DNA of 64,000 nucleotides from Candidatus Aenigmatarchaeota archaeon (GCA_016932615.1 JAFGCN010000018.1:3495-67494); one strand, 5' to 3'. Counted from the stretch's first letter, positions 3,089 to 16,066 are shown. Notes: generated by a model from the letters alone, not told the origin. Numbers and translations are program-made.

Positions 3089-3886
3089 TTAGCTTTCAAT
3101 TGCCTTAACAACATCACTTACAAAACCTTCGTACGCCTTCTGGCCTTTCTGGGCATCGATGCGCAGGTTTTTGTCCTGTAAAAAAGCCTCGACCCGCTCA
3201 ACCTTCCCCGGCCTCCTGAGCATCTGGAAGTCATCTATATCAAAGCCATCAAGAGCGTAAGGATGCCTTTTCTTGACCTCATCGAAAATTCCTTCATCGT
3301 ACCAATAGCCGGAAAGCCCAAAAAGCTGAGGCCATCTGGCCAGCGCTTCCCTTGGTTCCCTCTGGGCGGTTTCCTGAACCTCGTCCAGGCCCTCCTTGCT
3401 GAAATAGTCCAGGTAAACCATCAGTGAATGCTCTTCGTCGCCCGCGTGCATTCCAAAATCCGCCCCGGGGAAAACGCACTTTGCATCCACCCCAAGCGCT
3501 TCATGTATGACTGTTTCAAGCTCCCTTGGGATGCCGCCATGGCCTGCAACGATAACCACCTCGGGCTTCCTGCCGGAAATTCCCTGATAATATTCCACAA
3601 TCGGCTTAAGGAAGCCCAAAGTGGAGCTGTAGAAGTCCTCAACTGGAAGGTACGCTGGCATCCAGGCCCTGGCAGCTTCGCCGACACGGTCTGTCGTGTA
3701 AGGTATGCGGCCGGCATAACGCGCGCCCGTTTTTTCCGCTGCCTCTATCGCAGCAGAAGTTGCAACATAAGAATCAGTATCCTCATACAATGCGCCGCCA
3801 TGGCATTCGCTTTCGTTTCCCATGCTAAACACCAAAGTCTCGGTATGCCCCAATTCCCTTAACATCTCCCCATAGGCGTCTTTCAT
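3089..3886 (-). CDS. creatininase-family-like metal amidohydrolase, paralog B
   Basis: SECHGGALYEDTDS, AGHGGIP and GMHAGDEEHS. It is collinear with 2301-3086 over its whole length (AYLP.E.FY, CVFPG..FGMHAGDEEHSL, RWP.LFGLSG.W). Confidence 0.45.
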   Translation of the reverse strand: MKDAYGEMLRELGHTETLVFSMGNESECHGGALYEDTDSYVATSAAIEAAEKTGARYAGRIPYTTDRVGEAARAWMPAYLPVEDFYSSTLGFLKPIVEYYQGISGRKPEVVIVAGHGGIPRELETVIHEALGVDAKCVFPGADFGMHAGDEEHSLMVYLDYFSKEGLDEVQETAQREPREALARWPQLFGLSGYWYDEGIFDEVKKRHPYALDGFDIDDFQMLRRPGKVERVEAFLQDKNLRIDAQKGQKAYEGFVSDVVKAIES

Positions 3887-4395
3887 ATTTCTTTATCCCC
3901 CAAATCCAAAAACCTTTCGTAAACCACCCTCATAAGCCCATCGGTTCCCGGGACAGTGCCCATCCTGGTGTAGCCCTGGCCTTCGTAAAGCATATTTGCC
4001 GCATTGTTTCCCGTCAGGGCCTTAAGCTCAAGGCGCCGTATGCCTTCCTTTTTGCATGCTTCGATATATAGCTCAAGCAGCTTTTTTCCAATTCCCGTTC
4101 TGCGTTGCTCTGAGCCCACAACAATCTTGTTAACCCTTGACGTAACCTCGTCAAACCTGGAGCCAATAATATAGCCCACAACACGCCCATCGATTTCAGC
4201 GGCAAAGCTTAGTTTCCACTTAAGGGGAATCTCCATAAGGAAGTTCTCCCTCGTCCAGGGAGTTTCGCCAAGGGCGGTCCAGTTGCACTCAAGCGCGAAA
4301 AAATCCTTCTCGTGCCTGATAAAATACTCTCTTGTAAGCTTCACAAAAGCCACTTTTTCGCTATGATTGGTTCCAGTTTTAATAGTAATCACCAT
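3883..4395 (-). CDS. GNAT-family N-acetyltransferase
   Basis: 170 aa. The acetyl-CoA motif is QRRTGIGKKLLE. Its stop overlaps the downstream start by 4 nt. Confidence 0.75.
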   Translation of the reverse strand: MVITIKTGTNHSEKVAFVKLTREYFIRHEKDFFALECNWTALGETPWTRENFLMEIPLKWKLSFAAEIDGRVVGYIIGSRFDEVTSRVNKIVVGSEQRRTGIGKKLLELYIEACKKEGIRRLELKALTGNNAANMLYEGQGYTRMGTVPGTDGLMRVVYERFLDLGDKEI

Positions 4396-4445: not shown

Positions 4446-5738
4446 TTACCACTTATTTCCCCAGTTTTTGCTCCTTCCCGTAAGAACCTCCAGCAAGACC
4501 CCGGAAAAGGACAGTATCCAAAGGGCGGAACTAAGGAACTTGAAGGCCATTATATGGTGATAATGGCGCGCGGTGTGCAGAAGCTCCCAAGGTATCTTCC
4601 TGGAGTCCCCTGAAAGCGCGGGCCCAAGCACCGGCGCGACGAAGGTAAGTGTAGTATCCCCTATCAGAAAATATGCTGCGTAAAGCGGATAAAAATAAAG
4701 GAGAAACGGAAAAAGCAATACCCCAACAGTATACACCGTAGCTTCTATCAGGCCGGGAAGGACGCTTAGGTATGCCAGCGACTTTGCTTTCGACCTCGGT
4801 CCAAAAATGCCCCTGCGTGTGTATATCACCTGCCAGGTTCCCTTGTACCACCGGTAGCTTTGCCGCAGCTGCCTTTGAAGGGTCGGGACATCCCCCGTGC
4901 TTACTATTGCGTCAGGCGCAAAGCTGATTTTGTATCCTTCTTCCTGCATCTTCCAGGTGTATGCCGTGTCCTCGGTCTGGACGTTCGTGGGTATAGGGAT
5001 TTTCCTTGCAATCTCAGAGCGGACCATAAACGAAGCCCCGCAGACGACGAAAACTCCCCGCCGGTAGCTTTGGGCGCTCTTCCTGAACTTGCTTATCCGG
5101 TTAATCCATTCTTTTCCAAAGTGGAAATATTTTGCGGCCCGGTTTTTGGGAGGTTTTACATATCCAAAAGAGGTTACAGCCGCAGCCCCCTCCAACTCAA
5201 TGCTTTCTACAAGCTTTCGTATAGTCCCGGAATGGAGTTTCAGCCCTGAATCAACAAAATAGACATACTCTCCCAGCTTTACTCCGGGGTCCCTTACAAG
5301 GGCGTTCAGCTTCTCTGATTTTGAGGTTATGCCCTTCCTGGACCAGTAATAGATTGCAGGAAACTCCTTCCTGAATCGGGCCAAGATGTTCTCCAGCTTT
5401 TCAACCTCTTCCCAGGTGTTATCCAGGTTTGAGTCCGAGACATAGATGTTCTTTATCGGGTAGTCCTGGCGAAGAACACTCCTTATCGACTTCTCGATAA
5501 TTCCTGATTCCCTGTGGGCAGAAATTACCACAGTAACTTCTCCCGCCTCACTAATGCTAACCCTGCCTGAAGGCCTCAGCTCTCCTTTCAGGTAGCCAGT
5601 GCCCTTTGGCTTAAGGGAAATTTTTCTGGATTTGACCCGGATATGATGGCAGGCCAAAGTCAAAACATCTATTGTAAGCGTTATAGGAAGCACAGCAAAA
5701 GGGACCGCAAGAAGCGCCAATAGTGCAGATAGGGACAT
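4446..5738 (-). CDS. membrane-embedded family 2 glycosyltransferase (processive type)
   Basis: N- and C-terminal TM helices. The GT-A core starts at VVISAHRESGIIEKSIRSVLRQDYP. LRQSYRWYKG is a Q(R/Q)xRW-like motif typical of processive beta-glycan synthases. Confidence 0.7.
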   Translation of the reverse strand: MSLSALLALLAVPFAVLPITLTIDVLTLACHHIRVKSRKISLKPKGTGYLKGELRPSGRVSISEAGEVTVVISAHRESGIIEKSIRSVLRQDYPIKNIYVSDSNLDNTWEEVEKLENILARFRKEFPAIYYWSRKGITSKSEKLNALVRDPGVKLGEYVYFVDSGLKLHSGTIRKLVESIELEGAAAVTSFGYVKPPKNRAAKYFHFGKEWINRISKFRKSAQSYRRGVFVVCGASFMVRSEIARKIPIPTNVQTEDTAYTWKMQEEGYKISFAPDAIVSTGDVPTLQRQLRQSYRWYKGTWQVIYTRRGIFGPRSKAKSLAYLSVLPGLIEATVYTVGVLLFPFLLYFYPLYAAYFLIGDTTLTFVAPVLGPALSGDSRKIPWELLHTARHYHHIMAFKFLSSALWILSFSGVLLEVLTGRSKNWGNKW

Positions 5739-5749
5739 TATCTGGCCCC

Positions 5750-6469
5750 TTATCCTATAATTTCCCCGGAAGCGGGAAGCCGGCCCAGGTTAAAAAGCGC
5801 GTCGATTGCAGACATGTAGGGCTCAAAACCCGGAAACCTTTGGGGGTATACCGGGTGCTTATAATCCTGAAACCTGACCTCTACATCCTTGAACAAGCCC
5901 AGGTCCATATAACACCTTCCTCCATCGCCGGACAGGTAGATTACCGCTCCGACAGCCCGGGAAATGTCTATCAGTGCCCTGGTTGCGCAAGTCGAGGAAA
6001 TATCCCCTTGAAGTTCTGAGAACAGGATTATCTTTGCTTTTATCCCAAAAGATTCCGCAAGGTACCTTATCAGTCTCAGGTTGAATTCTGCCAGGCTTTC
6101 GCCGGGATTTTCATATATTTCCTTCAGGCCAGGAAAGAATTTTTCAAAGAAAGGCGACTTCTTGTAGTTAGCCTCAATTTGCCTCAGGTGATATTGGTTC
6201 CAAGGGACATTTTTTATCCTTGCGTCCTTTTTTATCCTTATTGCGCTTAGGGGGGCCATCTTTTTCTCAATAGGCACATTAAGCCAAATCCAGCCATCGT
6301 TTATTCTGATTTTGTTCCTGTTATGAAAGTCGGACTCGACATACTGGCAGTCTTCCCTTATTACAAAAACTCCCGGCTCGCTGCCAAGCTCATCGACTGC
6401 CCTGAGCTTATCAAAAAAACCCAGGTATGGGAGAAAATTCGGCTGGTGCGCAGACATAACTTTTGACAT
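5750..6469 (-). CDS. WbqC-like family protein
   Basis: The N-terminus SAHQPNFLPYLGFFDKL matches the WbqC-family signature HQPNYLPWLGYF. Confidence 0.65.
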   Translation of the reverse strand: MSKVMSAHQPNFLPYLGFFDKLRAVDELGSEPGVFVIREDCQYVESDFHNRNKIRINDGWIWLNVPIEKKMAPLSAIRIKKDARIKNVPWNQYHLRQIEANYKKSPFFEKFFPGLKEIYENPGESLAEFNLRLIRYLAESFGIKAKIILFSELQGDISSTCATRALIDISRAVGAVIYLSGDGGRCYMDLGLFKDVEVRFQDYKHPVYPQRFPGFEPYMSAIDALFNLGRLPASGEIIG

Positions 6470-6477
6470 ATTCCACC

Positions 6478-7119
6478 CTAATCAAAATTCAGGATAAAAT
6501 GATTTGCAAAAAACGGCTCTGCATAAAAGTTTTCTCCAAGCTGCAGAGTTGAGGCATAATAGCTTGCGTCAATCTTTATCCTCCTTAAGTCAAGGTTATT
6601 GTATTTGGCAAGCTGGGACTTGAAAAGCTTTATTGTTTCTTCCTTTTTCCTCATATCCTCCTCATTTCCGACATGAAAAAGGTGGGGATGAAACTCAGAA
6701 ACTATTGTCGATGGGGACTTGTAGTTGAGTATTACCGGCACCCTCCTGCAGGCAATCGATGACGCCTTGGAGACCGTCCTATGGTCCTGGTGGGTATCCT
6801 TGCGAAAATGGGTATAAACGACATCGGGCTTTTCCATTTCGATAATTTTCTCAAGCATGTCTTTTACGGCAATGAGGTCTAAAAGATTAGCGTCTGGAAG
6901 GTGGAAGCAGTGCAGTTTTGCCAGCCCTAGCGACTTTGCGGAGCTTTCGGCCTCTTTTAGCCTTATTTGCGGGTCTCCGCCCCTCTCGCCATCAGTGCAG
7001 AGAACCCCCACAACATAATCGCCCTTTCTGATATGGTGTATTATCCTCATTCCTGCCCCTATCTCAAAGTCGTCAGGGTGCGCCCCTATGACCACCACTC
7101 TTGAAACCTTCCCTTCCAT
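6478..7119 (-). CDS. PIG-L/LmbE-family N-acetylglucosaminyl deacetylase
   Basis: VVVIGAHPDDFEIGAG is the PIG-L motif, and there is a downstream HQDH. The track start at 7134 is a TTG. The first ATG, at 7119, is used here. Confidence 0.75.
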   Translation of the reverse strand: MEGKVSRVVVIGAHPDDFEIGAGMRIIHHIRKGDYVVGVLCTDGERGGDPQIRLKEAESSAKSLGLAKLHCFHLPDANLLDLIAVKDMLEKIIEMEKPDVVYTHFRKDTHQDHRTVSKASSIACRRVPVILNYKSPSTIVSEFHPHLFHVGNEEDMRKKEETIKLFKSQLAKYNNLDLRRIKIDASYYASTLQLGENFYAEPFFANHFILNFD

Positions 7120-7238
7120 AGGGGTAATATGCAAGATATATATTTATACACTAGTTTCAAGTAGTAACTTATTGGTAATATCTTTCCTCAAGCGTAAACT
7201 CGCCTCATGGGCTTTTTAAGCCCGCCTGATGGCTGAAA

Positions 7239-9167
7239 CTAAGCCAACCTTTCCTTCAAATGTCTTATCTCGTCCCTAAGCTCTATTGCCTTCTCGAAGT
7301 CAAGCTCTTCTGAGGCCTGCTTCATCTGGCTTTCCAGCTCGACAAGCATGCCTGGAATGTCGGACTTGGGGATGTGCTTTGTGCCTTTCAGCTTTGTCTC
7401 GGCTTTCGGTATGGGCTTTATTATGGTCCTGGGCGTGATATGGTGGCGCTTGTTGTAGGCCATCTGAATTGTCCTCCTCCTTTCCGTCTCCTCTATCGCC
7501 CGCTTCATCGAGTCGGTCATCTTATCGGCGTAAAGGACGACTCTGGCGCTTGCGTTTCTCGAGGCCCTGCCGATAATCTGGATTAAGCTCTTTGTGTCCC
7601 GCAAAAAGCCCTCCTTGTCGGCGTCAAGTATCCCGATAAAGCCGACCTCAGGAATGTCGAGGCCTTCTCTCAGGAGGTTTATTCCGACCAGGACATCGAA
7701 CTCGCCAAGCCGAAGCTGGCGTATTATTTCGGTCCTTTCCAGGGTGTCGATTTCCGAGTGGAGGTACCTTGTCCTGATTTTCTTCGAGGCGAGGAAATCC
7801 GTAAGCTCTTCGGCAAGCTTCTTGGTAAGGGTGGTTAGAAGGACTCTTTCTCCCTTTTTGACTGTCTTTTCGATTTCCCTCATAGCGTCCTCAATCTGGC
7901 CTTCGGTCTTTCTCACTTCCAGTTCGGGGTCAAGAAGGCCGGTCGGGCGGATTATCTGCTCTACAACCTGGCCGGAATGGTTTAGCTCGTACTCAGCCGG
8001 CGTAGCTGAGACGAAAATAACCGACTTCATGAATTTTTCGAACTCGTGGAATTTTAACGGCCTGTTGTCAAAGGCGCTTGGAAGCCGGAAGCCATAGTCG
8101 ATTAATGCCTGCTTGCGTGACCTGTCGCCGTTGTACATCGCGTGAAGCTGGGGGATTGTCTGGTGGCTTTCGTCGATGAAAAGAAGGAAATCCTCAGAGA
8201 AATAGTCCAGAAGGCAGTAAGGCGGCTCGCCTGGCTTTCTGCCGTCGAAGTGGCGGGAGTAGTTTTCAATGCCGTTGCAGTAGCCGGTCTCCTGAATCAT
8301 CTCAAGGTCGTACAGCGTCCTTTGCTTTAGCCGGTGGGCTTCGACAAGGTCAAGCTCCGGCAGTCGAGCCTCAAGCTCCGCTTTTATGGAGTCAACCGCC
8401 CGGCTTATAGTGTCCTGGGGAGTCACAAAATGCCTTGCCGGAAAGACGAAAAAGGAGGGGTAGTCTGTTACCTGAGTTGCCGTGTTCTTGTCGATTTCCC
8501 TGATTCTCTCAATCTCGTCTCCGAACATCTCGATTCTTAGGATGTTCTTGAAGTAGCCCGGGATAAAGTCAACCGTGTCGCCCTTTACCCTGAATCTTCC
8601 GGGCATAAGCTCGACGTCGTTACGCTCGAACTGTATGTCGATTAGTTTCCTTAGAAGCTCGTTTCTCTGTATCTTCTGCCCTACCCGTAAGTCGAACCCC
8701 ATGCCTTCGTAATTTTTCGGGTCTCCAAGGCCGTATATGCAGGATACCGAAGCGATTATTATCGTGTCCCTCCCCGAAAGAAGCGAGGCGGTTGCTGAGA
8801 GGCGCATCTGCTCGATCTTCTGGTTAATCTTTGCGTCCTTTTCGATATACATGTCCTTTTGGGGAATGTAGGACTCCGGCTGGTAATAGTCGTAATACGA
8901 GACGAAATATTCCACCCGGTTGTTTGGGAAAAACTCCCTGAACTCGGTGTAAAGCTGTGAGGCAAGCGTCTTGTTGTGGGCGATTATAAGGGTGGGCCTT
9001 TGCGCCCTGTTGATGATGTTTGCCATCGTGAAGGTCTTGCCGCTCCCCGTAACTCCAAGGAGAGTCTGGCACCTCATCTTATTTTCAAGTCCCCTGACAA
9101 GCCCCTCTATAGCCTGCGGCTGTGAGCCCGCCGGCTTAAAAGAGGCAGATAATCTGAAATTCTCCAT
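7239..9167 (-). CDS. uvrB: excinuclease ABC subunit B
   Basis: 642 aa. Walker A GVTGSGKTFTMA, FVSYYDYYQPESYIP beta-hairpin region, helicase motifs, and a C-terminal UVR-like helix ELDFEKAIELRDEIRHLK. Confidence 0.95.
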   Translation of the reverse strand: MENFRLSASFKPAGSQPQAIEGLVRGLENKMRCQTLLGVTGSGKTFTMANIINRAQRPTLIIAHNKTLASQLYTEFREFFPNNRVEYFVSYYDYYQPESYIPQKDMYIEKDAKINQKIEQMRLSATASLLSGRDTIIIASVSCIYGLGDPKNYEGMGFDLRVGQKIQRNELLRKLIDIQFERNDVELMPGRFRVKGDTVDFIPGYFKNILRIEMFGDEIERIREIDKNTATQVTDYPSFFVFPARHFVTPQDTISRAVDSIKAELEARLPELDLVEAHRLKQRTLYDLEMIQETGYCNGIENYSRHFDGRKPGEPPYCLLDYFSEDFLLFIDESHQTIPQLHAMYNGDRSRKQALIDYGFRLPSAFDNRPLKFHEFEKFMKSVIFVSATPAEYELNHSGQVVEQIIRPTGLLDPELEVRKTEGQIEDAMREIEKTVKKGERVLLTTLTKKLAEELTDFLASKKIRTRYLHSEIDTLERTEIIRQLRLGEFDVLVGINLLREGLDIPEVGFIGILDADKEGFLRDTKSLIQIIGRASRNASARVVLYADKMTDSMKRAIEETERRRTIQMAYNKRHHITPRTIIKPIPKAETKLKGTKHIPKSDIPGMLVELESQMKQASEELDFEKAIELRDEIRHLKERLA

Positions 9168-9218
9168 ACAAATGTTAGAAGGGCTTTAAACTATATATAG
9201 CCCTGCTTTGCTAGCAAA

Positions 9219-10037
9219 CTAGAGATCATCGATAGGGCTTTTTATGCTTTTTATTGATGCCGAACTTACGTGAGTATAGATTTGGGTTGTCGAAATATTC
9301 TCATGGCCAAGAAGCTTTTGTATCAGCCTTATGTCAGTTCCCCCTTCAAGCAAGTGCGTAGCAAAAGAGTGCCTCAGTGTATGGCAAGTTGCCTTCTTCT
9401 TTATTCCGGCTTTCCTCGCGGAGTTCTCAAAGACTTTCTGTATCGTCTTTACCGGATATTTTCCGGACCTTCCCGAAAAAAGATAGGTTTCTGGCTTGTA
9501 GAGGCCAATATAATTAGCCAGGTCTTCCCTGAGAGTTTGGGGGAGCATCACATAGCGGTCTTTATTTCCCTTTGCTGAAACAATCTTAACCATGTCCCTG
9601 TCAAAATCTATGTCAAAAACCTTGAGGTTAGCCGCTTCAGAAACCCTTAAGCCCAGCCCGTAAAGGCACTTTAAAATGAGCTTATGCTTTGCGTTTTCAG
9701 TAGAGCTTATGATCTTTTTAACTTCCTCCTTTGACAAAACTGCTGGGAGGCGCTTCTCCCTTTTTGGCCTTGTTAACCCCAAGCAGGATTTTGTCTTCAG
9801 CACATCTCCAAGCCAGAAATTAAGAGCGCTTATCGCAAGGTTTGCAGTCAGGTTGGTATATTTTCTTTTCTCAATGAGGTAGGCCACATAAGATTTTACG
9901 TCCGCTCCATTAACCCCAGAAATATTTTTCCGTACGTATGCTGCAAAGTCCCTTGCAAAGAACAGGTATGCTTTCTTGGTCTTAGGGCTAAATCCCCTGG
10001 AATCAAGCTCGACAACAAGCCTCTCGAACTCATCCAT
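9219..10037 (-). CDS. tyrosine site-specific recombinase (XerA/XerC-like)
   Basis: 272 aa. Catalytic context is GLRVSE (Arg I), HTLRHSFATHLL (H-x-x-R), LLGHENISTTQIYTH (His/Tyr). There is no extra insertion of the kind found in integron integrases. Confidence 0.85.
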   Translation of the reverse strand: MDEFERLVVELDSRGFSPKTKKAYLFFARDFAAYVRKNISGVNGADVKSYVAYLIEKRKYTNLTANLAISALNFWLGDVLKTKSCLGLTRPKREKRLPAVLSKEEVKKIISSTENAKHKLILKCLYGLGLRVSEAANLKVFDIDFDRDMVKIVSAKGNKDRYVMLPQTLREDLANYIGLYKPETYLFSGRSGKYPVKTIQKVFENSARKAGIKKKATCHTLRHSFATHLLEGGTDIRLIQKLLGHENISTTQIYTHVSSASIKSIKSPIDDL

Positions 10038-10106
10038 AATTACAATGCTATTTCGTTAATACTCATAAAAGTTGAGGCAAAGGAGAATAAAGTTCGTTAA
10101 ACAGTT

Positions 10107-10171
10107 GTTATACGCAATTCGAAAACCCGCTCTTCTACGGAGCAAGCACAACGTAAGGGGGGGCGTTCTCC
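10107..10171. repeat. left arm of the imperfect inverted repeat flanking the R-M cassette
   Basis: The blocks gttatacgc..ttcgaaaacccgct..cggagcaag...gt..gggggggcgttctcc recur as the reverse complement, in the same order, at 12825-12958. Confidence 0.7.
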
Positions 10172-10174
10172 AAA

Positions 10175-11236
10175 CTAACACTTCAGTAGCTTTCTGAAAA
10201 TGTGCTTCAGGAATTCTTCTCTTTGGTCTTCATGCGTCAGAAGGGCAGTGAGGTTGTAAAAGTGTTTTATCGTTTTGTCTTTCTTGACTCTTTCCTCAAC
10301 TTCTGAGGTGATGCAGCTTGCCACAAAGATTGTAACGACTTCCCGATTTTGCCTTATTGCTTCTTCAAATGATTTCTTTGCGGCTCCATATCGTTCCAAA
10401 GCACCCGCAGGATCAGCACCGCCTTTTACCTCAATAACTGCTATAGTGGAACCATCTTTATCTATTATCGAAACATCAGGCTCACTTGAAAATATTACTG
10501 ATCTTTTGTTGCTAAGTGTAAATCCTTTGAACTCTCTAATCCTGTCTAGTTGAGACTTAGCCTTTTTCTTATCGAACTCCTCAATTCCTGAATGATTGTC
10601 CCTTAGCATGAATGCAGTGAGTTTGCATAAATCAATCGCTTCTTTGATTAGCAACTTCTGCACCACTTTTTCAGCTTCATCTCCTATCGCATTTCTCCAT
10701 GAGCCATCTATCTGAGCGCCAGTCGATGCAAACAAAAGACCTTTGATATGCTCAGTGCTAAAGTCTTCAAGGGCACTCTCAATTATCAAAGAGATGTGCT
10801 CATTAAACAGCTTAGATAGTTCCTTTGCCTGCACTTCAGAAAGGTTGTTTTTCTCTCCAAGCTCAAACCTCATTGTGTGAACTCCGCTTAGATAGCTTAC
10901 GGATTTTTGGGAAAGCGCAGCAACATTTCTGTAGTAAGCTATCAGAACGGGATGTTCTCTTAGGATTCTTGGATGAGAGAATACCTGTATCAAACTCAGA
11001 TTCGAATTCTTAATCTGCTCGAATGCTTCTTTTGTTATGCCCCAGGACTTATATTTCGTCCAGTCATAATCTTCAGACAAGGGAATCAGCTTTTGGATCG
11101 TTTCAGGAAACGTATAAGTGTTATACTCATGAAGTTTTCGGTAAAAGAAAGTAGACCTTAAGCGGTAATTGATTCTATGGGCCTCACTTAACAGCGCTTT
11201 TCTTTCTTCAGGGGACATACTCTTTTTCAGTGCCAT
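10175..11236 (-). CDS. type II restriction endonuclease (PD-(D/E)xK)
   Basis: 353 aa. EPDVSIIDKDGSTIAVIEVKGG fits a PD...(D/E)xK nuclease core. It lies 4 nt downstream of the methyltransferase gene. Confidence 0.6.
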   Translation of the reverse strand: MALKKSMSPEERKALLSEAHRINYRLRSTFFYRKLHEYNTYTFPETIQKLIPLSEDYDWTKYKSWGITKEAFEQIKNSNLSLIQVFSHPRILREHPVLIAYYRNVAALSQKSVSYLSGVHTMRFELGEKNNLSEVQAKELSKLFNEHISLIIESALEDFSTEHIKGLLFASTGAQIDGSWRNAIGDEAEKVVQKLLIKEAIDLCKLTAFMLRDNHSGIEEFDKKKAKSQLDRIREFKGFTLSNKRSVIFSSEPDVSIIDKDGSTIAVIEVKGGADPAGALERYGAAKKSFEEAIRQNREVVTIFVASCITSEVEERVKKDKTIKHFYNLTALLTHEDQREEFLKHIFRKLLKC

Positions 11237-11240
11237 AATA

Positions 11241-12782
11241 CTATTTCTCCCAATAATAGACGCATTTTCTCACCTCTTTTCTTCCATGCTTGCCCATCTG
11301 TTGGCTGCTGTTTCCTTTTCCGCTTGGAAGCTTATATATTTTTTTGATCTTTAAGCCAGACTTCGAGGCAAATTCCGACAAAATCAGATCGACAGGTATA
11401 ACTTCTCCGGCATATCTTACATTGTCATTTACATAGTAAATTCTACCTCCTTTTTTAAGAGTCCTTGCGAGTTCCATGATTACGAAGGCGTGTTCGTAGA
11501 AGTAATTTCTGACCATTCGGGATATACCGGGATTGTTCAGTTTCTTTTCAGTCTTGTATTGTTCAAGAATCGTCAAAACTTCTTGTAGTGCCTCATTAGA
11601 TTCAAATATCTTCTCCGCCTTCTTAAAATCCTCTTTTCTGCCCGCTTTCTCATATAGCGATCTTAAGTATTCTACCTTGTCCTTGTTTTCTACGGTTGCG
11701 GATAAGAGGGTCTGTCTTAGATTTCTTATGCCTTCTTCATCAATACCCAAATATGCTAATTCTAAGGCATAAGTTCGGGTATAATCATAGCGGTTACAAT
11801 AAGGGGGCGAAGAGACTACTAAGTCAATGGATTCGCCTTTTATTTTAGGGAGTATCTCTAGGCAAGATCCGGTCTTTAATTCAACTTCTGGACTTTTTCT
11901 ATTCCTTGAATCAAAGAGTTTCATGTTTCTCAAATCCCCAAGGATTTGATTTAACTGAGAAAAAAGCGCCTCTTCAAATCCATAAATCTTCCCCTTGTCA
12001 AAACTGCCCTTTCCTTTTTCTGCTCTGAGATCCCATCTTAGGCATTGGCCATCCTTTCGGGTATGACTTATTCGTTCAAGTATGCTAAAGCACGCGAAGC
12101 TAAAGACGTTCCTTAACTCTGGGTCTTCAGTGGTTGAGAGATAGTTTAGAAAACCATTGAGTTTTCTCTCAGTGATTTTTGGAAATGCCTTTTCAGTAAT
12201 TTTTATATGTTTGAAGGAAGTCTCCATCTTCTCAGGATACGTCTCGAAGTTCACGCTTTTTAGTTCTTTGATTTTTTCTGAGAGGTAATCGGGGTCCATT
12301 TTTTCTAGAGACAGTTTGGCTTTAAGTATGAAGTTGCCAAGGGGCATAAGCTCTATGCCGAGAGACGAAAATCCAACTTCCTTTGCACTCAGCAAAGTGG
12401 TGCATGATCCAGCAAATGGGTCAAAGACCAAGCCTTTTTTGTTCGGATAGTCTTGCATGAACAGCTTAACCATATCTGATGAGAAACCTTCCTTAAAGCT
12501 AAACCAGTTGTATATTGGGATTTTCTTATTTGCTTGGAAACTAACTAACTGACGATTTAGAAGCGAATAGGTTTCAATCAAGCCCTTGTATCTCTCTTCT
12601 AGTTTATCTCTTTCTGAATGTTCCGGCTCTTGAAGTTTAGAGTCGCCCATTGATATATCCTTAGCCATAAGTCCTTCTGTTTTTTGAGACAAAATATTAG
12701 AACTAGTGATCTGTGATTGTGTGCAAAGTTTATGTGCCTTCTCACAAGTAATCATATTTGGTTTAGCAGCAACCCTCACCAT
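11241..12782 (-). CDS. DNA methyltransferase (N4-C/N6-A class, SPPY catalytic motif)
   Basis: VFDPFAGSCTTLLSA is the SAM-binding motif I. About 200 aa downstream, VVSSPPYCNRYDY is catalytic motif IV. An alternative start (MAKDISMG) is at 12668. Confidence 0.8.
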   Translation of the reverse strand: MVRVAAKPNMITCEKAHKLCTQSQITSSNILSQKTEGLMAKDISMGDSKLQEPEHSERDKLEERYKGLIETYSLLNRQLVSFQANKKIPIYNWFSFKEGFSSDMVKLFMQDYPNKKGLVFDPFAGSCTTLLSAKEVGFSSLGIELMPLGNFILKAKLSLEKMDPDYLSEKIKELKSVNFETYPEKMETSFKHIKITEKAFPKITERKLNGFLNYLSTTEDPELRNVFSFACFSILERISHTRKDGQCLRWDLRAEKGKGSFDKGKIYGFEEALFSQLNQILGDLRNMKLFDSRNRKSPEVELKTGSCLEILPKIKGESIDLVVSSPPYCNRYDYTRTYALELAYLGIDEEGIRNLRQTLLSATVENKDKVEYLRSLYEKAGRKEDFKKAEKIFESNEALQEVLTILEQYKTEKKLNNPGISRMVRNYFYEHAFVIMELARTLKKGGRIYYVNDNVRYAGEVIPVDLILSEFASKSGLKIKKIYKLPSGKGNSSQQMGKHGRKEVRKCVYYWEK

Positions 12783-12824
12783 ATACTATCATATCAACTT
12801 ATACTTATATTGCAAAAACTTAAT

Positions 12825-12958
12825 GGAGAACGCCCCCCCACTACGACCATTGCTTCGCAAAGTTACGCCTTCCAGGCAAATATTACACAAGCGGGTTTTC
12901 GAACTTCTCAGCCTGCGGGCTTCGACCCTTCCGGCTAAATTGGCCTGGGGCGTATAAC
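12825..12958. repeat. right arm of the inverted repeat flanking the R-M cassette (expanded copy)
   Basis: ggagaacgccccccc...cgaccattgcttcg...agcgggttttcgaa...gcgtataac is the reverse complement of the blocks at 10107-10171, with two internal insertions of about 32 and 44 nt. Confidence 0.7.
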
Positions 12959-13055
12959 AGGAATTTAGCGGCTCCGCTTCGCTCCGACCCAAATTCCCTT
13001 GTCTAGCTATAACTTTGGTTATCGGTCTGGGAACTTCGCCAAATTCCATCAGGTA
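12904..13055. repeat. direct repeat copy A (downstream of the radical SAM gene)
   Basis: cttctcagcctgcgggcttcgacccttccggctaaat ... ggtctgggaacttcgccaaattccatcaggta. The same two blocks lie at 14003-14079. Copy A has about 80 extra nt between the blocks. Confidence 0.7.
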
Positions 13056-13078
13056 AACTCGATTGCAAATCTACGTAC

Positions 13079-13960
13079 TCAAGTCACTGGGTTGGCTAAA
13101 CGATTATTGCTCTCCAGCTCTGAGAATATTTTCTTGCAGACCGCACAATCTTTTGCTGTAAATAGGCTTTCATATTCACTAATGTCCGTTCCAGTAATTC
13201 GGGCGGCTCCCTTAGGACCTTTGGTGATTAAAGCATTAAGAACAGGATTTTGCCTCGATTTAATTATCAAGTCATCCACGGGATGGTATATCGCCGATCC
13301 TAGAGAAGCAGAGGGTTGTTCAAGCCCACATAAATAAACCTCCCCCCGCGGATTAACATTTATTTTCTCTAGCTTGGTTTGGGGTACTTCGCATCGATTA
13401 TACCCTCTTAGCTCGTGCGGTGGCAGATTTGCTGCTCTGCCCAAAGGGCATGGGTAATAGTTAAATCTATCACCAAAAGTCCACAGAATAGTCTTTCCCC
13501 CATAGATTTGCCCTACTTCTTCTTTCATATCCCTAAGGAATTGCGCAGAGAGAGGCGTAGCTTCCGGAGCATTTTTTCTGGCTGCTCTGACGTGAAACTT
13601 GTCAAAGCTAATCCCAATAACATACACATCATAGTAGTTCAATTTTTCAATCAAGTCATAGGCTCTACTTTCGTCTGTAAGCCAAAGCCCGTTTGTAAAA
13701 ACCCCTATTTCCTCCAGGTTTGGCATCATTTTCCGATTATCTTGGACATACTCTAAGCTACCAAATAATAGCTCTTCTGATTCGAAGGGCTCTCCTCCAG
13801 TCAGGATATATCTTTTCATGTTCTTGGGAAGGTTTGGCATTACTGCCAGAACAGTTTCAAGCTCTGGGACAAATCCGTCAGGAGTGCAACTGTAGACACA
13901 ATGATCACATACGAGACTGCATTTGTCAGTTATCCTGTGAAAGACATTCTCTCCTACCAT
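13079..13960 (-). CDS. radical SAM protein with a Cys-rich (SPASM/twitch-like) C-terminal region
   Basis: CSLVCDHC is CxxxCxxC near the N-terminus. LTGGEPF is the GGE SAM motif, followed by VFTNG. C-terminal cysteines are CPLG..., NRCEV, VNPRGEVYLCG and DCAVC. Confidence 0.75.
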   Translation of the reverse strand: MVGENVFHRITDKCSLVCDHCVYSCTPDGFVPELETVLAVMPNLPKNMKRYILTGGEPFESEELLFGSLEYVQDNRKMMPNLEEIGVFTNGLWLTDESRAYDLIEKLNYYDVYVIGISFDKFHVRAARKNAPEATPLSAQFLRDMKEEVGQIYGGKTILWTFGDRFNYYPCPLGRAANLPPHELRGYNRCEVPQTKLEKINVNPRGEVYLCGLEQPSASLGSAIYHPVDDLIIKSRQNPVLNALITKGPKGAARITGTDISEYESLFTAKDCAVCKKIFSELESNNRLANPVT

Positions 13961-14002
13961 AGAGTAATCACTATTTATTGAGTAAATAGTGTGCCCTCGT
14001 GG

Positions 14003-14079
14003 CTTCTCGGACTTCGTCCTTGACCCTTCCGGCTAAATCCGCTATAGACCCAGAAACTTCGCCATAGTTCCATCAGTTA
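14003..14079. repeat. direct repeat copy B (upstream of the radical SAM gene)
   Basis: cttctcggacttcgtccttgacccttccggctaaat..cgctatagacccagaaacttcgccatagttccatcagtta aligns with the two blocks of copy A. Confidence 0.7.
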
Positions 14080-14090
14080 TCTCTGAAAAA

Positions 14091-15446
14091 CTAGTTCCTC
14101 ATGCTTGTAACGGGTGCAGGAAAGCGCCCGCCCCGCTTCATGAAATCCCTTGCGGAATAGGGGTTTACCTTCATTATGGGCGCCTCGCCCAAAAGCCCAC
14201 CATAATTGACCGACTCGCCCGCTTCCTTTCTGGGAACCGGAATCACCCTCACGGCAGTTGTCTTGTTGTTGATAATCCCGATTGCAAGCTCGTCTGCGAT
14301 TATCGCGTTTATCGTTTCCTCAGGCGTGCTTCCGGGGATTGCAAACATATCAAGCCCCACAGAGCAGACTGCGGTAAGCGACTCAAGCTTGTCGAGCGTA
14401 AGCGCCCCTAGCTTTACCGCCTCTATCATCCCAAGGTCCTCGCTTACAGGTATGAAAGTGCCGCTAAGCCCACCTACATTTCCGCTCGCCATGGCGCCGC
14501 CCTTCTTGACAGCGTCCATCAAAAGCGCAAGTGCAAGAGTCGAGCCGTGAGTTCCTACCCGTTCGATGCCAAAGCGCTCGATTATCCTTGCAACGGAGTC
14601 GCCATTCGAGGTTGTCGAGGCAAGGGAAATGTCCACGACGCCAAAGGAAACCCCAAGGTTTCCTGCAAGCTCCCTCCCGACAAGCTCCCCACAGCGGGTA
14701 ATCTTGAATACTGTCCTCTTTATCACCTCAGAAAGCTGCGTAAGGTCGCACTCCCGGTTTTTTTCCACCACGCTTCTTATTACTCCAGGCCCGCTGATTC
14801 CGACGTTAAGCGCCATGTCCGCTTCGCCCACTCCGTGAAAAGCGCCTGCCATGAAGGGATTGTCTTCGGGGGCATTTACAAACACCACGAATTTTGCGCA
14901 CCCAACTGCGTCCTTGCTCAGCGCAGCGGTTTTCTTCAGCATCCCCCCCAGCAGGTTAACCGCATCCAGGTTCATGCCACTGGTGTTCGTCCCGACATTA
15001 AGAAAAGAGCACACTCTTTCAGTTTTAGAAAGCACATCGGGCAGGGACTCGACAAGCATCCGGTCAGAGGGGGTCATCCCCTTTTGCACCAGGGCGCCAA
15101 AGCCACCAATAAAGTCAATTCCAGCATCTTTTGCCGCCCTGTCCAGGGTTTCTGCCATCTGCAAAAACTTTTCTCTTTCGCAGTGGCCTTCCATTATCAG
15201 GCTGACCGGGGTTACGGAAACCCTCTTGTTTACGATAGGTATCCCATACTTGGACTCCAGTTTCCTTGCCTCCTCAACTAGCTTTTTAGCGTTAGGGCAG
15301 ACCTTGCCATACACTTTTTTCTTAAAATTCGCAAAGTCCGAATCGATGCAGTCCTTGAGATTTATGCCCAGAGTAACCGTGCGAATATCCAGGTTCTGGT
15401 GCAGTATCATGCTGTTAGTTTCATACACCTCCTCGACTGTTATCAT
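14091..15446 (-). CDS. UPF0210/DUF711-family protein
   Basis: 451 aa. The N-terminus is [26 protein letters not shown]. It pairs with an upstream small ACT-domain gene, the conserved UPF0237/UPF0210 arrangement. Confidence 0.7.
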
Positions 15447-15447
15447 A

Positions 15448-15726
15448 TTAAACCCTATGCATCATCTTGAAAATATTTTCATGCTGAAGCTGTACTTTTA
15501 GTCCCATCTGAAGGCCAATAGACTCCAAATCCGCCCGGAGCTTTTCCATGGGAACTTTGCAGTCCTTCACGTCCACAAGCATGGTCATGACAAAGTACCC
15601 CTCTACAACCTTCTGGCTTATGTCTTCGATATTGATGCCCTGCTCATACAGCAGGCCGGAAATCTTTGCGACAATCCCCTTTTTGTCCTCCCCAATTACA
15701 GTAATAAAAGACAACTCCTTGCCCAT
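15448..15726 (-). CDS. ACT-domain protein (UPF0237-like)
   Basis: 92 aa. [32 protein letters not shown] is an ACT fold signature. Its stop abuts the start of 14091-15446. Confidence 0.7.
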
Positions 15727-15757
15727 AATTAAGATAGTATATATACGGAGTCTAGTT

Positions 15758-16066
15758 ATGAAACCATTACTCCTTGCGCTGCTTTTGATGCTGCCTGTAG
15801 TAATCGGGGGCTATATAATTTACAGCGAAACCGCAGAATGCAACCTTATCACCCGAGAAGGATGTGAAAACCTGCCTCCTGCCTGCGACGATGGAGATAT
15901 TTTTTCGGAAAAAGATTGCACCTGTGTTCCCGACCCTTCCGGATGCAGCGGGCTTGATGAAGAATCCTGCGGCAAAAATCCCGACTGTTTCTCGTTTCAG
16001 AGAGGCGGCACATGCGCCTGCCCTTCGTGCGAAATTTACCTGAGTCACCAGTGCCTGCCAAAATAG
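15758..16066 (+). CDS. small Cys-rich secreted protein
   Basis: An internal ATG of track ORF 15548 gives MKPLLLALLLMLPVVIGG (signal/TM). Twelve cysteines follow (CNL..GCENLPPACDDG..CTCVPDPSGCSG..CGKNPDC..CACPSC). Confidence 0.5.
   Translation: MKPLLLALLLMLPVVIGGYIIYSETAECNLITREGCENLPPACDDGDIFSEKDCTCVPDPSGCSGLDEESCGKNPDCFSFQRGGTCACPSCEIYLSHQCLPK

Follow-up and report, generated by a model that had tools for sequence, protein, structure and literature searches.

A restriction-modification gene pair inside an imperfect inverted repeat whose ends resemble Xer-type sites, next to an archaeal xerA gene

Why should a pair of restriction-modification (R-M) genes be enclosed by a long imperfect inverted repeat, directly beside a gene for a tyrosine recombinase? 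The question is raised by a locus in a 64,000-nucleotide stretch of DNA from Candidatus Aenigmatarchaeota archaeon (GCA_016932615.1 JAFGCN010000018.1:3495-67494). This whole stretch is hereafter called the window, and positions are counted from its first letter. A preliminary description of the locus had offered three explanations: the terminal repeats of a mobile R-M unit, a recombinase-mediated inversion of the cassette that acts as an on/off switch, and insertion into a pre-existing palindromic site. Herein, we report that the imperfect inverted repeat is real and exceeds what is expected by chance, and that a link to the recombinase is real as well, but of another kind than was first proposed. 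What is new is that the ends of the arms can be recognised as mirrored sites that suggest targets of a Xer recombinase. The explanation that we favour, tentatively and in the knowledge that it may well be wrong, is that a foreign R-M cassette is lodged at a XerA recombination-site region beside the chromosomal xerA, in the manner of a dif module or of an integrative mobile element exploiting Xer (IMEX).

The repeat had been described as four blocks in the left arm that recur in the right arm, in the same order, as reverse complements. All four were recovered by direct reading and by a repeat scan, and the expansion of the right arm by two insertions was borne out as well (surplus segments of ~27 and ~43 nt). 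Three perfect reverse-complement pairs form its backbone: one of 16 nt (10157-10172/12824-12839), which holds the G7/C7 tract; one of 14 nt (10118-10131/12890-12903), which lengthens to AA(G)TTCGAAAACCCGCT, or 16/17, with one indel; and one of 10 nt (10106-10115/12950-12959). The block 10132-10156 is weaker, with a complementarity to 12840-12862 of ~65-70%. Outwards, the repeat extends beyond the limits first given and reaches 10095 and 12970 (CGTTAAA/TTTAGCG). A gapped local alignment of the arms scored 40. Shuffled sequences scored 14.9±2.5 with a maximum of 29.5; in 2000 pairs of segments taken at equal spacing from the window, the score was 16.1±3.0 with a maximum of 30. The co-folding energy of the arms was -113.8 kcal/mol, compared with -64.6±4.8 for shuffles (minimum -80.8). 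Within the 64 kb, each of the 14-16-mer boxes is present at the two arms only. A single 25-nt segment contains every mismatch between the arms; elsewhere the boxes match perfectly, at unequal spacing. This confinement, together with perfect boxes at differing spacings, argues for constraint rather than for a decaying duplication. The arms also stand out in composition, with a G+C content of 53-55% in the arms, 39% in the cassette and 46% in the window.

Next, we considered the outer ends of the repeat. Each end carries a candidate Xer-type site with the 11-6-11 layout, that is, two 11-nt arms around a 6-nt spacer; we refer to them as site L and site R (Table 1). The exact pattern GCGTATAA-N6-TTTANCG occurs in the window only at 10095-10115 (minus strand) and 12950-12970 (plus strand), and the two occurrences are inversely oriented. 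The inner 8+7 nt of site R are identical to those of site L at 14/15 positions, with a different spacer between them. A manual count over the full sites gave 8 mismatches in 22 arm positions, and site R is absent from the list of hits with ≤7 mismatches. An arm of site L, ATTGCGTATAA, has 10/11 identity to ATTTCGTATAA, the arm that XerC binds in pdif sites of Acinetobacter (PMC13141974 Table 1).

The recombinase gene that had been placed beside the left arm was confirmed. Its product passed the cut-off of NCBIfam model NF040815, recomb_XerA_Arch (244.8 bits, cut-off 220). The tyrosine invertase models NF007370/NF007371 gave 50.5/47.2 bits, below their cut-offs of 221/222, and the integron-integrase model TIGR02249 gave 235.9 in two stretches, short of its cut-off of 265. 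Since the XerA cut-off was passed and the integrase and invertase models failed, we regard the protein as the lineage's housekeeping Xer enzyme and not as a dedicated invertase or the integrase of an element. Its best match in PDB was IntI4 (2a3v, 6.2e-48), and further matches were XerA (5hxy, 1e-45) and the P. abyssi XerC-like recombinase (4a8e, 2e-44). Homologues of the same length (~272 aa) occur widely among DPANN-type archaea, with identities of ≤65-66%. An integron cassette was tried as a candidate and rejected: the integrase falls below the TIGR02249 cut-off and has 272 aa like its XerA relatives, and there is no attC hairpin (R''-L''...L'-R'). No GTTATAC-like sequence that could serve as an integron R' box follows GGAATTT/AAATTCC in the region.

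In the closest relatives for which sequence upstream of xerA was available, site L can be aligned to an element conserved 30-60 nt ahead of that gene, and relatives with an element of this type lack the cassette. Its clearest counterparts are in Diapherotrites (L176 and L177; here and below, L numbers denote loci used for comparison), with the sequence ATTTCGTATAA CAACTT ATATACGAACT and a dyad symmetry of 9/11; their arm matches the pdif XerC-binding arm exactly. More distant xerA genes with similar upstream sites were found in L100, L106, L108, L114 and L118. Palindromic Xer-type sites were ~4-fold more frequent within 400 nt upstream of xerA homologues than elsewhere, and the enrichment was 3-5-fold against a composition-matched null. 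The conserved 11-6-11 palindrome immediately precedes a TTTATATA box in a group of DPANN-type and Methanofastidiosia relatives. It may be the dif site, or an operator of XerA, lying beside xerA in these lineages in contrast to Thermococcales. Archaeal dif sites with flanking inverted repeats have been reported, and in Thermococcales dif does not adjoin xerA (Cortez et al. 2010, PMC2958812).

Two other loci showed paired sites of this type. In L108, whose xerA homologue has 40% identity, two inverted Xer-type sites lie upstream of the gene at 48-75 and 175-202, 103 nt apart, and the region folds with z = -3.4. The layout resembles a miniature of the window arrangement without cargo, but with the opposite arms facing inwards. 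In L166, strongly dif-like sequences at 60-87 and 3850-3877 (ATTCCGCATAA/ATTACGTATAA-AATGGC-TTATCCAAACT; also in L173, at minus-strand offset 835) have an identical spacer and inverted orientation, and enclose ~3.8 kb with a Xer-like gene. This unit may be invertible, or may resemble a dif module with its own recombinase.

Under the favoured explanation, the inverted repeat would be a dyad-symmetric recombination region split in two, with one half now at each end of the cargo. Because the arms of Xer sites are quasi-palindromic, both junctions are open to two readings. In the first, inversely oriented sites would bound a module, as with Acinetobacter dif modules. In the second, the junctions would be the attL and attR of a classical integration. 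The host site would then be AGTTCGTTAAA-CAGGAA-TTTAGCGGCTC and the element site GGGGCGTATAA-CAGTTG-TTATACGCAAT, with the crossover within the shared AACAG. As both recombining partners would be palindromic, the junctions would mirror each other. Circularisation would bring the inner boxes AAGTTCGAAAACCCGCT and GGGGGGGCGTTCTCCA together around the crossover in a single long palindrome, which might include accessory binding sites. Excision is predicted to leave the scar AGTTCGTTAAACAGGAATTTAGCGGCTC, and the predicted circle junction is GGGGCGTATAACAGTTGTTATACGCAAT. In a more specific version, which we regard as doubtful, an R-M element using the host XerA would be the first archaeal counterpart of IMEX and dif modules, integrated at the dyad-symmetric XerA site upstream of xerA. 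Its circular attachment region would read boxC'-boxB'-GCGTATAA-CAGTTG-TTATACGC-boxB-boxC, with the crossover in the centre; the mirrored arms would be the split halves of that attachment palindrome, and the inner boxes would be accessory sites that steer directionality. Since no more than 2-3 of 6 spacer positions agree between the two sites, the unit is by now probably fixed, and present-day inversion is unlikely.

The cargo enclosed by the arms is a complete type II R-M pair, as first described, with an XcyI-family restriction endonuclease and an N6_N4 methyltransferase. We found 1078 homologues of the endonuclease, several of them carrying the XcyI family name. The translation of the methyltransferase has the motifs DPFAGS and SPPY, which correspond to the AdoMet-binding motif and to (S/D)PP(Y/F). 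It is 71% identical to its homologue in L083 from residue 37 on. Homologues have 462-476 aa, and the first 38 codons of the open reading frame (ORF) in the window (12668-12782) have no counterpart. Because homologues match only from residue 37, the true start is probably Met39, and ~155 nt of AT-rich upstream DNA would thus lie on the inner side of the right arm. The distances given earlier for the arms must be adjusted accordingly. The ~40 nt between the right arm and the methyltransferase start holds for the first ATG (41 nt) but not for the probable start (~155 nt), and the gap between the endonuclease stop codon (10175-10177) and the left arm is 2 nt instead of 3. We infer, from the sequence only, that a promoter of the cassette may lie within 12669-12823.

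Table 1. Features of the R-M locus and of the compared xerA-upstream regions (window positions unless a locus is named)
Feature	Position	Strand	Details
xerA, 272-aa tyrosine recombinase, archaeal XerA type	9219..10037	-	Pfam Phage_integrase 1.9e-41 and SAM_4
37-nt stretch of about double depth	10074..10110		Logan unitig depth 20.3; second path from 10111 is GTTTCAATCGGGAGAAAGGGCTAAA
Site L, candidate Xer-type 11-6-11 core	10091..10118	-	ATTGCGTATAA CAACTG TTTAACGAACT, read towards xerA
Left arm of inverted repeat	10095..10172		boxes 10095-10101, 10106-10115, 10116-10131, diverged 10132-10156, 10157-10172 (G7 tract)
Type II restriction endonuclease, XcyI family, 353 aa	10175..11236	-	PF09571 RE_XcyI 6.4e-21, PF09194 BsoBI 2.3e-07
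DNA methyltransferase, N6_N4 family, ORF of 513 aa	11241..12782	-	PF01555; probable start Met39 at 12668
Cassette upstream region within the arms	12669..12823	-	AT-rich, TATA-like AATATAAGTATAAG near 12800-12813
Right arm of inverted repeat	12824..12970		12824-12839 (C7 tract), diverged 12840-12862, 27-nt extra segment, 12890-12905, 43-nt extra segment, 12950-12959, 12964-12970
Site R, candidate Xer-type site in mirror orientation	12947..12974	+	GGGGCGTATAA CAGGAA TTTAGCGGCTC
xerA-upstream palindrome	window 10038-10120; L176:4943-4970; L177:2631-2658; L174:~4930-4975; L094:~3940-3980; L175:1-30		

To see what travels with such a cassette, we compared the locus with homologous cassettes on other contigs, whose endonucleases have amino acid identities of 73-82% and whose nucleotide identity, where compared, is ~70%. 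They occupy at least five other, unrelated contexts. The pairing of endonuclease and methyltransferase as neighbours is conserved in L083, L085 and L089. The cassette of L083 (3569-6044), the closest homologue with a long context, lies in opposite orientation within a Mbh/Nuo-like membrane hydrogenase/complex I operon; it looks cleanly inserted, with no inverted repeat at its flanks. That of L085 is on a ParA-bearing contig, and others are in L088-L093. Nucleotide similarity between the window and the related cassettes is limited to the coding region: it begins at 10177 and ends, by BLASTN, at 12561-12614, and 12669-12823 has no homology to them. No flanking inverted repeat clearly exceeded shuffles in the homologous cassettes, the score of L093 being marginal (29.5 vs 21±3). 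The preliminary description had raised the possibility that the same arms flank other cargo in other genomes; there were no other copies of the arms in the window, in IMG/VR, in JGI metagenome contigs or in 1.7 Mb of fetched loci, and on the same grounds a dispersed repeat or miniature inverted-repeat transposable element was rejected as a candidate. A GTDB scan with the DUF711 neighbour reached ≤81% amino acid identity and returned no nucleotide-level relatives. As the cassette occurs in unrelated contexts without the arms, the cargo is mobile and the arms are specific to the window locus. The comparison of sequences thus shows a cassette that is subject to horizontal transfer and is not accompanied by these arms elsewhere.

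Xer-type matches near related cassettes were found as exceptions in L088, inside a truncated methyltransferase gene, and in L086, near the end of the methyltransferase. In L086 (3360-7060) and L087, a 420-aa ORF lies between the endonuclease homologue and an oppositely oriented methyltransferase, in a ParB/DUF2779 context. The dif-like sequence of L086, GAAGTATATAA-ACTTAG-TTATGTTAGAG, is ~220 nt past the methyltransferase.

Public data with the locus were available from one SRA run, SRR13394437, a sediment metagenome; 56% of its Logan contigs were read. One contig spans 8880-10103, and a second, of 38 kb, begins at 10081 and runs through the left arm, the cassette and the right arm, oriented as in the window. 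No inversion or deletion joints were present in the Logan contigs read, and one orientation only was seen. The 37-nt stretch of double depth that ends at 10110 (Table 1) is followed by two paths. The diverging unitig, of 55 nt, has a depth of 8.6, compared with a genome depth of ~8, and in it GTTTCAATCGGGAGAAAGGGCTAAA replaces the arm. The branch at 10110/10111 is 3 nt past the boundary between the spacer and the distal arm of site L. Tyrosine recombinases cut at the spacer boundary, and the offset does not exceed the uncertainty in placing that boundary. Read towards xerA, the variant path is ATTGAAACTAA-CAACTG-TTTAACGAACT, that is, the spacer and proximal arm of site L with another distal arm. 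Its source could be another organism or a further site in the same genome. A simple empty site was rejected as the reading of the variant unitig: the window does not contain the sequence into which the unitig continues, and a similarity to the sequence upstream of xerA in L094 holds in a fixed register only and is non-significant in free local alignment. The contig break at 8880 reflects a uvrB motif common to many organisms and not a rearrangement; the k-mer depth of the uvrB segment at 8851-8931 rises to ~1700 in this run, and it could be mistaken for a structural boundary.

How well does the favoured explanation stand up to these results? Several observations weigh against it. Site R is convincing in its inner 15 positions only and weak in the outer ones, and the spacers are not identical: CAACTG matches CAGGAA at 2/6 positions and TTCCTG at 3/6. 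A decomposition into attL and attR was bound to be consistent, given how it was constructed, and both sub-models are tentative. The shared AACAG, at 5 nt the best direct repeat, requires asymmetric boundaries and is within chance expectation. The enrichment of sites upstream of xerA is real, with modest statistics; the palindrome there may be an operator or promoter element of xerA instead of dif, and in Thermococcales dif lies away from xerA. The role of the inner G+C-rich boxes is a guess, and these boxes had no match elsewhere in the fetched loci. No Xer-type sites lay within 700 nt of the ends of related cassettes with adjacent methyltransferase and endonuclease genes; since the homologous cassettes lack Xer-type flanks, the window locus, on one metagenomic contig, is a single case. 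Neither an empty site, nor an excised circle, nor a second context was found in the material searched. Finally, the databases held no XerA relatives above 65-66% identity, and the gene neighbourhood was not conserved among those present.

Could the arms instead be the ends of a non-autonomous, transposon-like R-M unit of the type described by Furuta, which was mobilised in trans and landed beside the Xer site or was targeted to it, as are IS1202-family elements? Each arm would then be a terminal inverted repeat that contains several binding boxes, with different spacing at the two ends. We judge this unlikely. Long imperfect repeats do surround the entire R-M pair, the perfect boxes are unequally spaced as at complex transposon ends, and the arms are missing from the xerA-upstream regions of relatives and from the variant unitig. 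R-M systems with imperfect inverted repeats of 26-65 bp are documented (PMC2853133), and insertion sequences that target dif or pdif sites are known (PMC10132070). However, there was no target-site duplication at any symmetric boundary, cassettes of 70-82% identity lack the arms, and the window, IMG/VR and JGI contigs gave no second copy. The outermost box coincides with a host-conserved Xer-type arm, and the gene and domain annotation of the region contains no transposase. In the absence of a target-site duplication, and with homologous cassettes that have neither arms nor Xer-type sites, a transposon-like unit is weakly supported.

A second alternative is that a palindrome of the host was split by illegitimate insertion. 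Here, a G+C-rich hairpin region of ~200 nt upstream of xerA, formed by dif-flanking repeats or a structured RNA gene, would have received the cassette at its apex, and Xer recombination would play no part. The helix-like perfect blocks and the asymmetric unmatched segments that form small local hairpins suit such a structure, as do the G+C-rich arms in a genome of 46% G+C and the inner ends of the repeat adjoining the cassette. Palindromic structures also occur upstream of xerA in L108, L102 and L095, and inverted repeats have been reported around archaeal dif sites (PMC2958812). Against it, neither the variant unitig nor the xerA-upstream sequence of any relative has a counterpart of the inner boxes. 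The joined arms would form a loop-less perfect palindrome of 32 bp, which is odd for an RNA hairpin. Neither half gave an Rfam or tRNA signal; Rfam, at gathering level for the whole window and at E≤10 for 9000-14200, and ARAGORN returned nothing relevant, and a split structured RNA or tRNA gene was rejected as a candidate. Folded singly, neither arm nor the region after 12958 beats shuffles (z -0.7 to +0.1). We consider an illegitimate split quite unlikely. In its general form, insertion at a pre-existing palindromic site was nevertheless the closest of the explanations first offered: the outer end of the left arm does coincide with a conserved dyad-symmetric XerA-type site, but no empty site was found in the contigs and loci searched.

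The arms might also act as a long-range stem in RNA or single-stranded DNA. In a read-through transcript they would pair and insulate, process or stabilise the methyltransferase-endonuclease segment. Stems in rRNA processing offer an analogue. The predicted duplex is very stable, the neighbouring genes are all on the same strand, and the host has the splicing endonuclease EndA. Yet the predicted duplex showed no bulge-helix-bulge when inspected by eye, no motif search having been run, and the likely promoter inside the right arm would give an mRNA without the 5' arm. Two mismatches are compatible with wobble pairing and show no clear strand preference, and no metatranscriptome contigs were found at the locus. 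This role is improbable. The least probable alternative of all is an invertible segment, in which XerA or another recombinase flips the 2.7-kb cassette and alters expression or read-through: mirror-image Xer-type sites do lie beside a Xer gene, and experiments in Acinetobacter have demonstrated Xer-mediated inversion between pdif sites of inverse orientation (PMC13141974), but the spacers match at 2/6 or 3/6 where the pdif inversions observed needed 6/6 or 5/6, the cassette's own upstream region is enclosed by the arms, the co-oriented flanking genes suggest no obvious regulatory logic, the contigs read from the source run (56%) show the window orientation only, and the enzyme is a XerA equivalog, so the on/off switch first proposed is not upheld.

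The surroundings of the locus are those of an archaeal chromosome. The window encodes a class I LysRS, the tRNA splicing endonuclease EndA and CDC48, and the best relatives of its proteins are in metagenome-assembled genomes of DPANN-type archaea and Methanofastidiosia. Genes are on the minus strand throughout 5750-15446, in the order UvrB, tyrosine recombinase, XcyI endonuclease, N6_N4 methyltransferase, radical SAM protein and DUF711. The G7 box (12821-12843, minus strand) is weakly self-complementary (GGGGGG CGTT CTCC) and is followed by AGTTTTT; it may terminate transcription of the radical SAM gene, which lies upstream, immediately ahead of the upstream region of the cassette. An 86-aa ORF over the right arm was rejected as a controller (C) protein, having a low-complexity translation and no Pfam or NCBIfam hit. 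A scan for sigma-70 promoters and terminators gave counts at the level of shuffles; the organism is archaeal. Avoidance of the candidate recognition sequences CCCGGG/CYCGRG in the window, considered as a sign of R-M activity, gave no clear signal (14 observed vs 18.4 expected), with zero sites in 8558-15851.

That R-M systems travel is established, but little is known of the mechanism where a cassette encodes neither a transposase nor an integrase. The Xer-dependent modules on record are bacterial, most of them from Acinetobacter plasmids, along with IMEX. If this archaeal cassette is indeed bounded by XerA-type sites beside xerA, both Archaea and defence or addiction genes would be added to the cases in which a recombinase for chromosome resolution is hijacked, and the locus would provide concrete 28-bp substrates for XerA. 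The xerA-upstream palindrome in uncultivated archaea bears on the location of dif or on the regulation of xerA. Should the link to Xer prove wrong, the locus would add one case to the known R-M units with flanking inverted repeats.

IMEX such as CTXphi and GGI are flanked by directly repeated dif-like sequences at chromosomal dif, and to our knowledge no archaeal IMEX has been described. Like them, the element in the window lacks a recombinase of its own and lies beside a Xer core site, and its hybrid-looking junctions share AACAG; the pair of dif-like sequences in inverse orientation is reminiscent of attP in CTXphi, which is folded. In contrast, the arm asymmetry of its sites reads as inverted, a direct reading being available only through the quasi-palindromic arms, and the site beside it is a candidate dif or operator, whereas IMEX integrate at chromosomal dif. 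Invertible switches (fim, hin and type I hsdS shufflons) likewise combine inverted repeats with an adjoining tyrosine recombinase gene; here, however, the enzyme is of the XerA family, a whole R-M operon with its upstream region is enclosed, and no second orientation was seen in the contigs.

The units of Furuta, Abe and Kobayashi (2010, PMC2853133) also hold a type II R-M system within unique imperfect inverted repeats, with no transposase inside. The clear cases among them show target-site duplications of 8 bp and can be compared with empty sites, unlike the window, which lacks the duplication and whose repeat ends resemble Xer-type sites. With the archaeal dif sites of Cortez et al. 2010 (PMC2958812), the locus shares an 11-6-11 dyad-symmetric XerA site and additional inverted repeats, while in Thermococcales dif is not beside xerA and no cargo is inserted between the flanking repeats. 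The dif modules of Acinetobacter differ in being found on bacterial plasmids with XerC/XerD, as opposed to an archaeal chromosome with a single XerA. They lack the extension of the repeat by 60-110 nt past the core sites. The outer positions of site R in the window are weak and the spacers of the two sites differ, whereas Acinetobacter inversion and deletion require spacers that are identical or identical at 5/6 positions (PMC13141974), and the module of the window was not found bounded by Xer sites elsewhere in the material searched. In their layout, the two nonetheless agree: as in the dif (pdif) modules, a gene module lies within inversely oriented 28-bp sites of the 11-6-11 type, the recombinase is encoded by the host and not in the module, and the cargo is of the accessory or addiction type (PMC6449649, PMC13141974).

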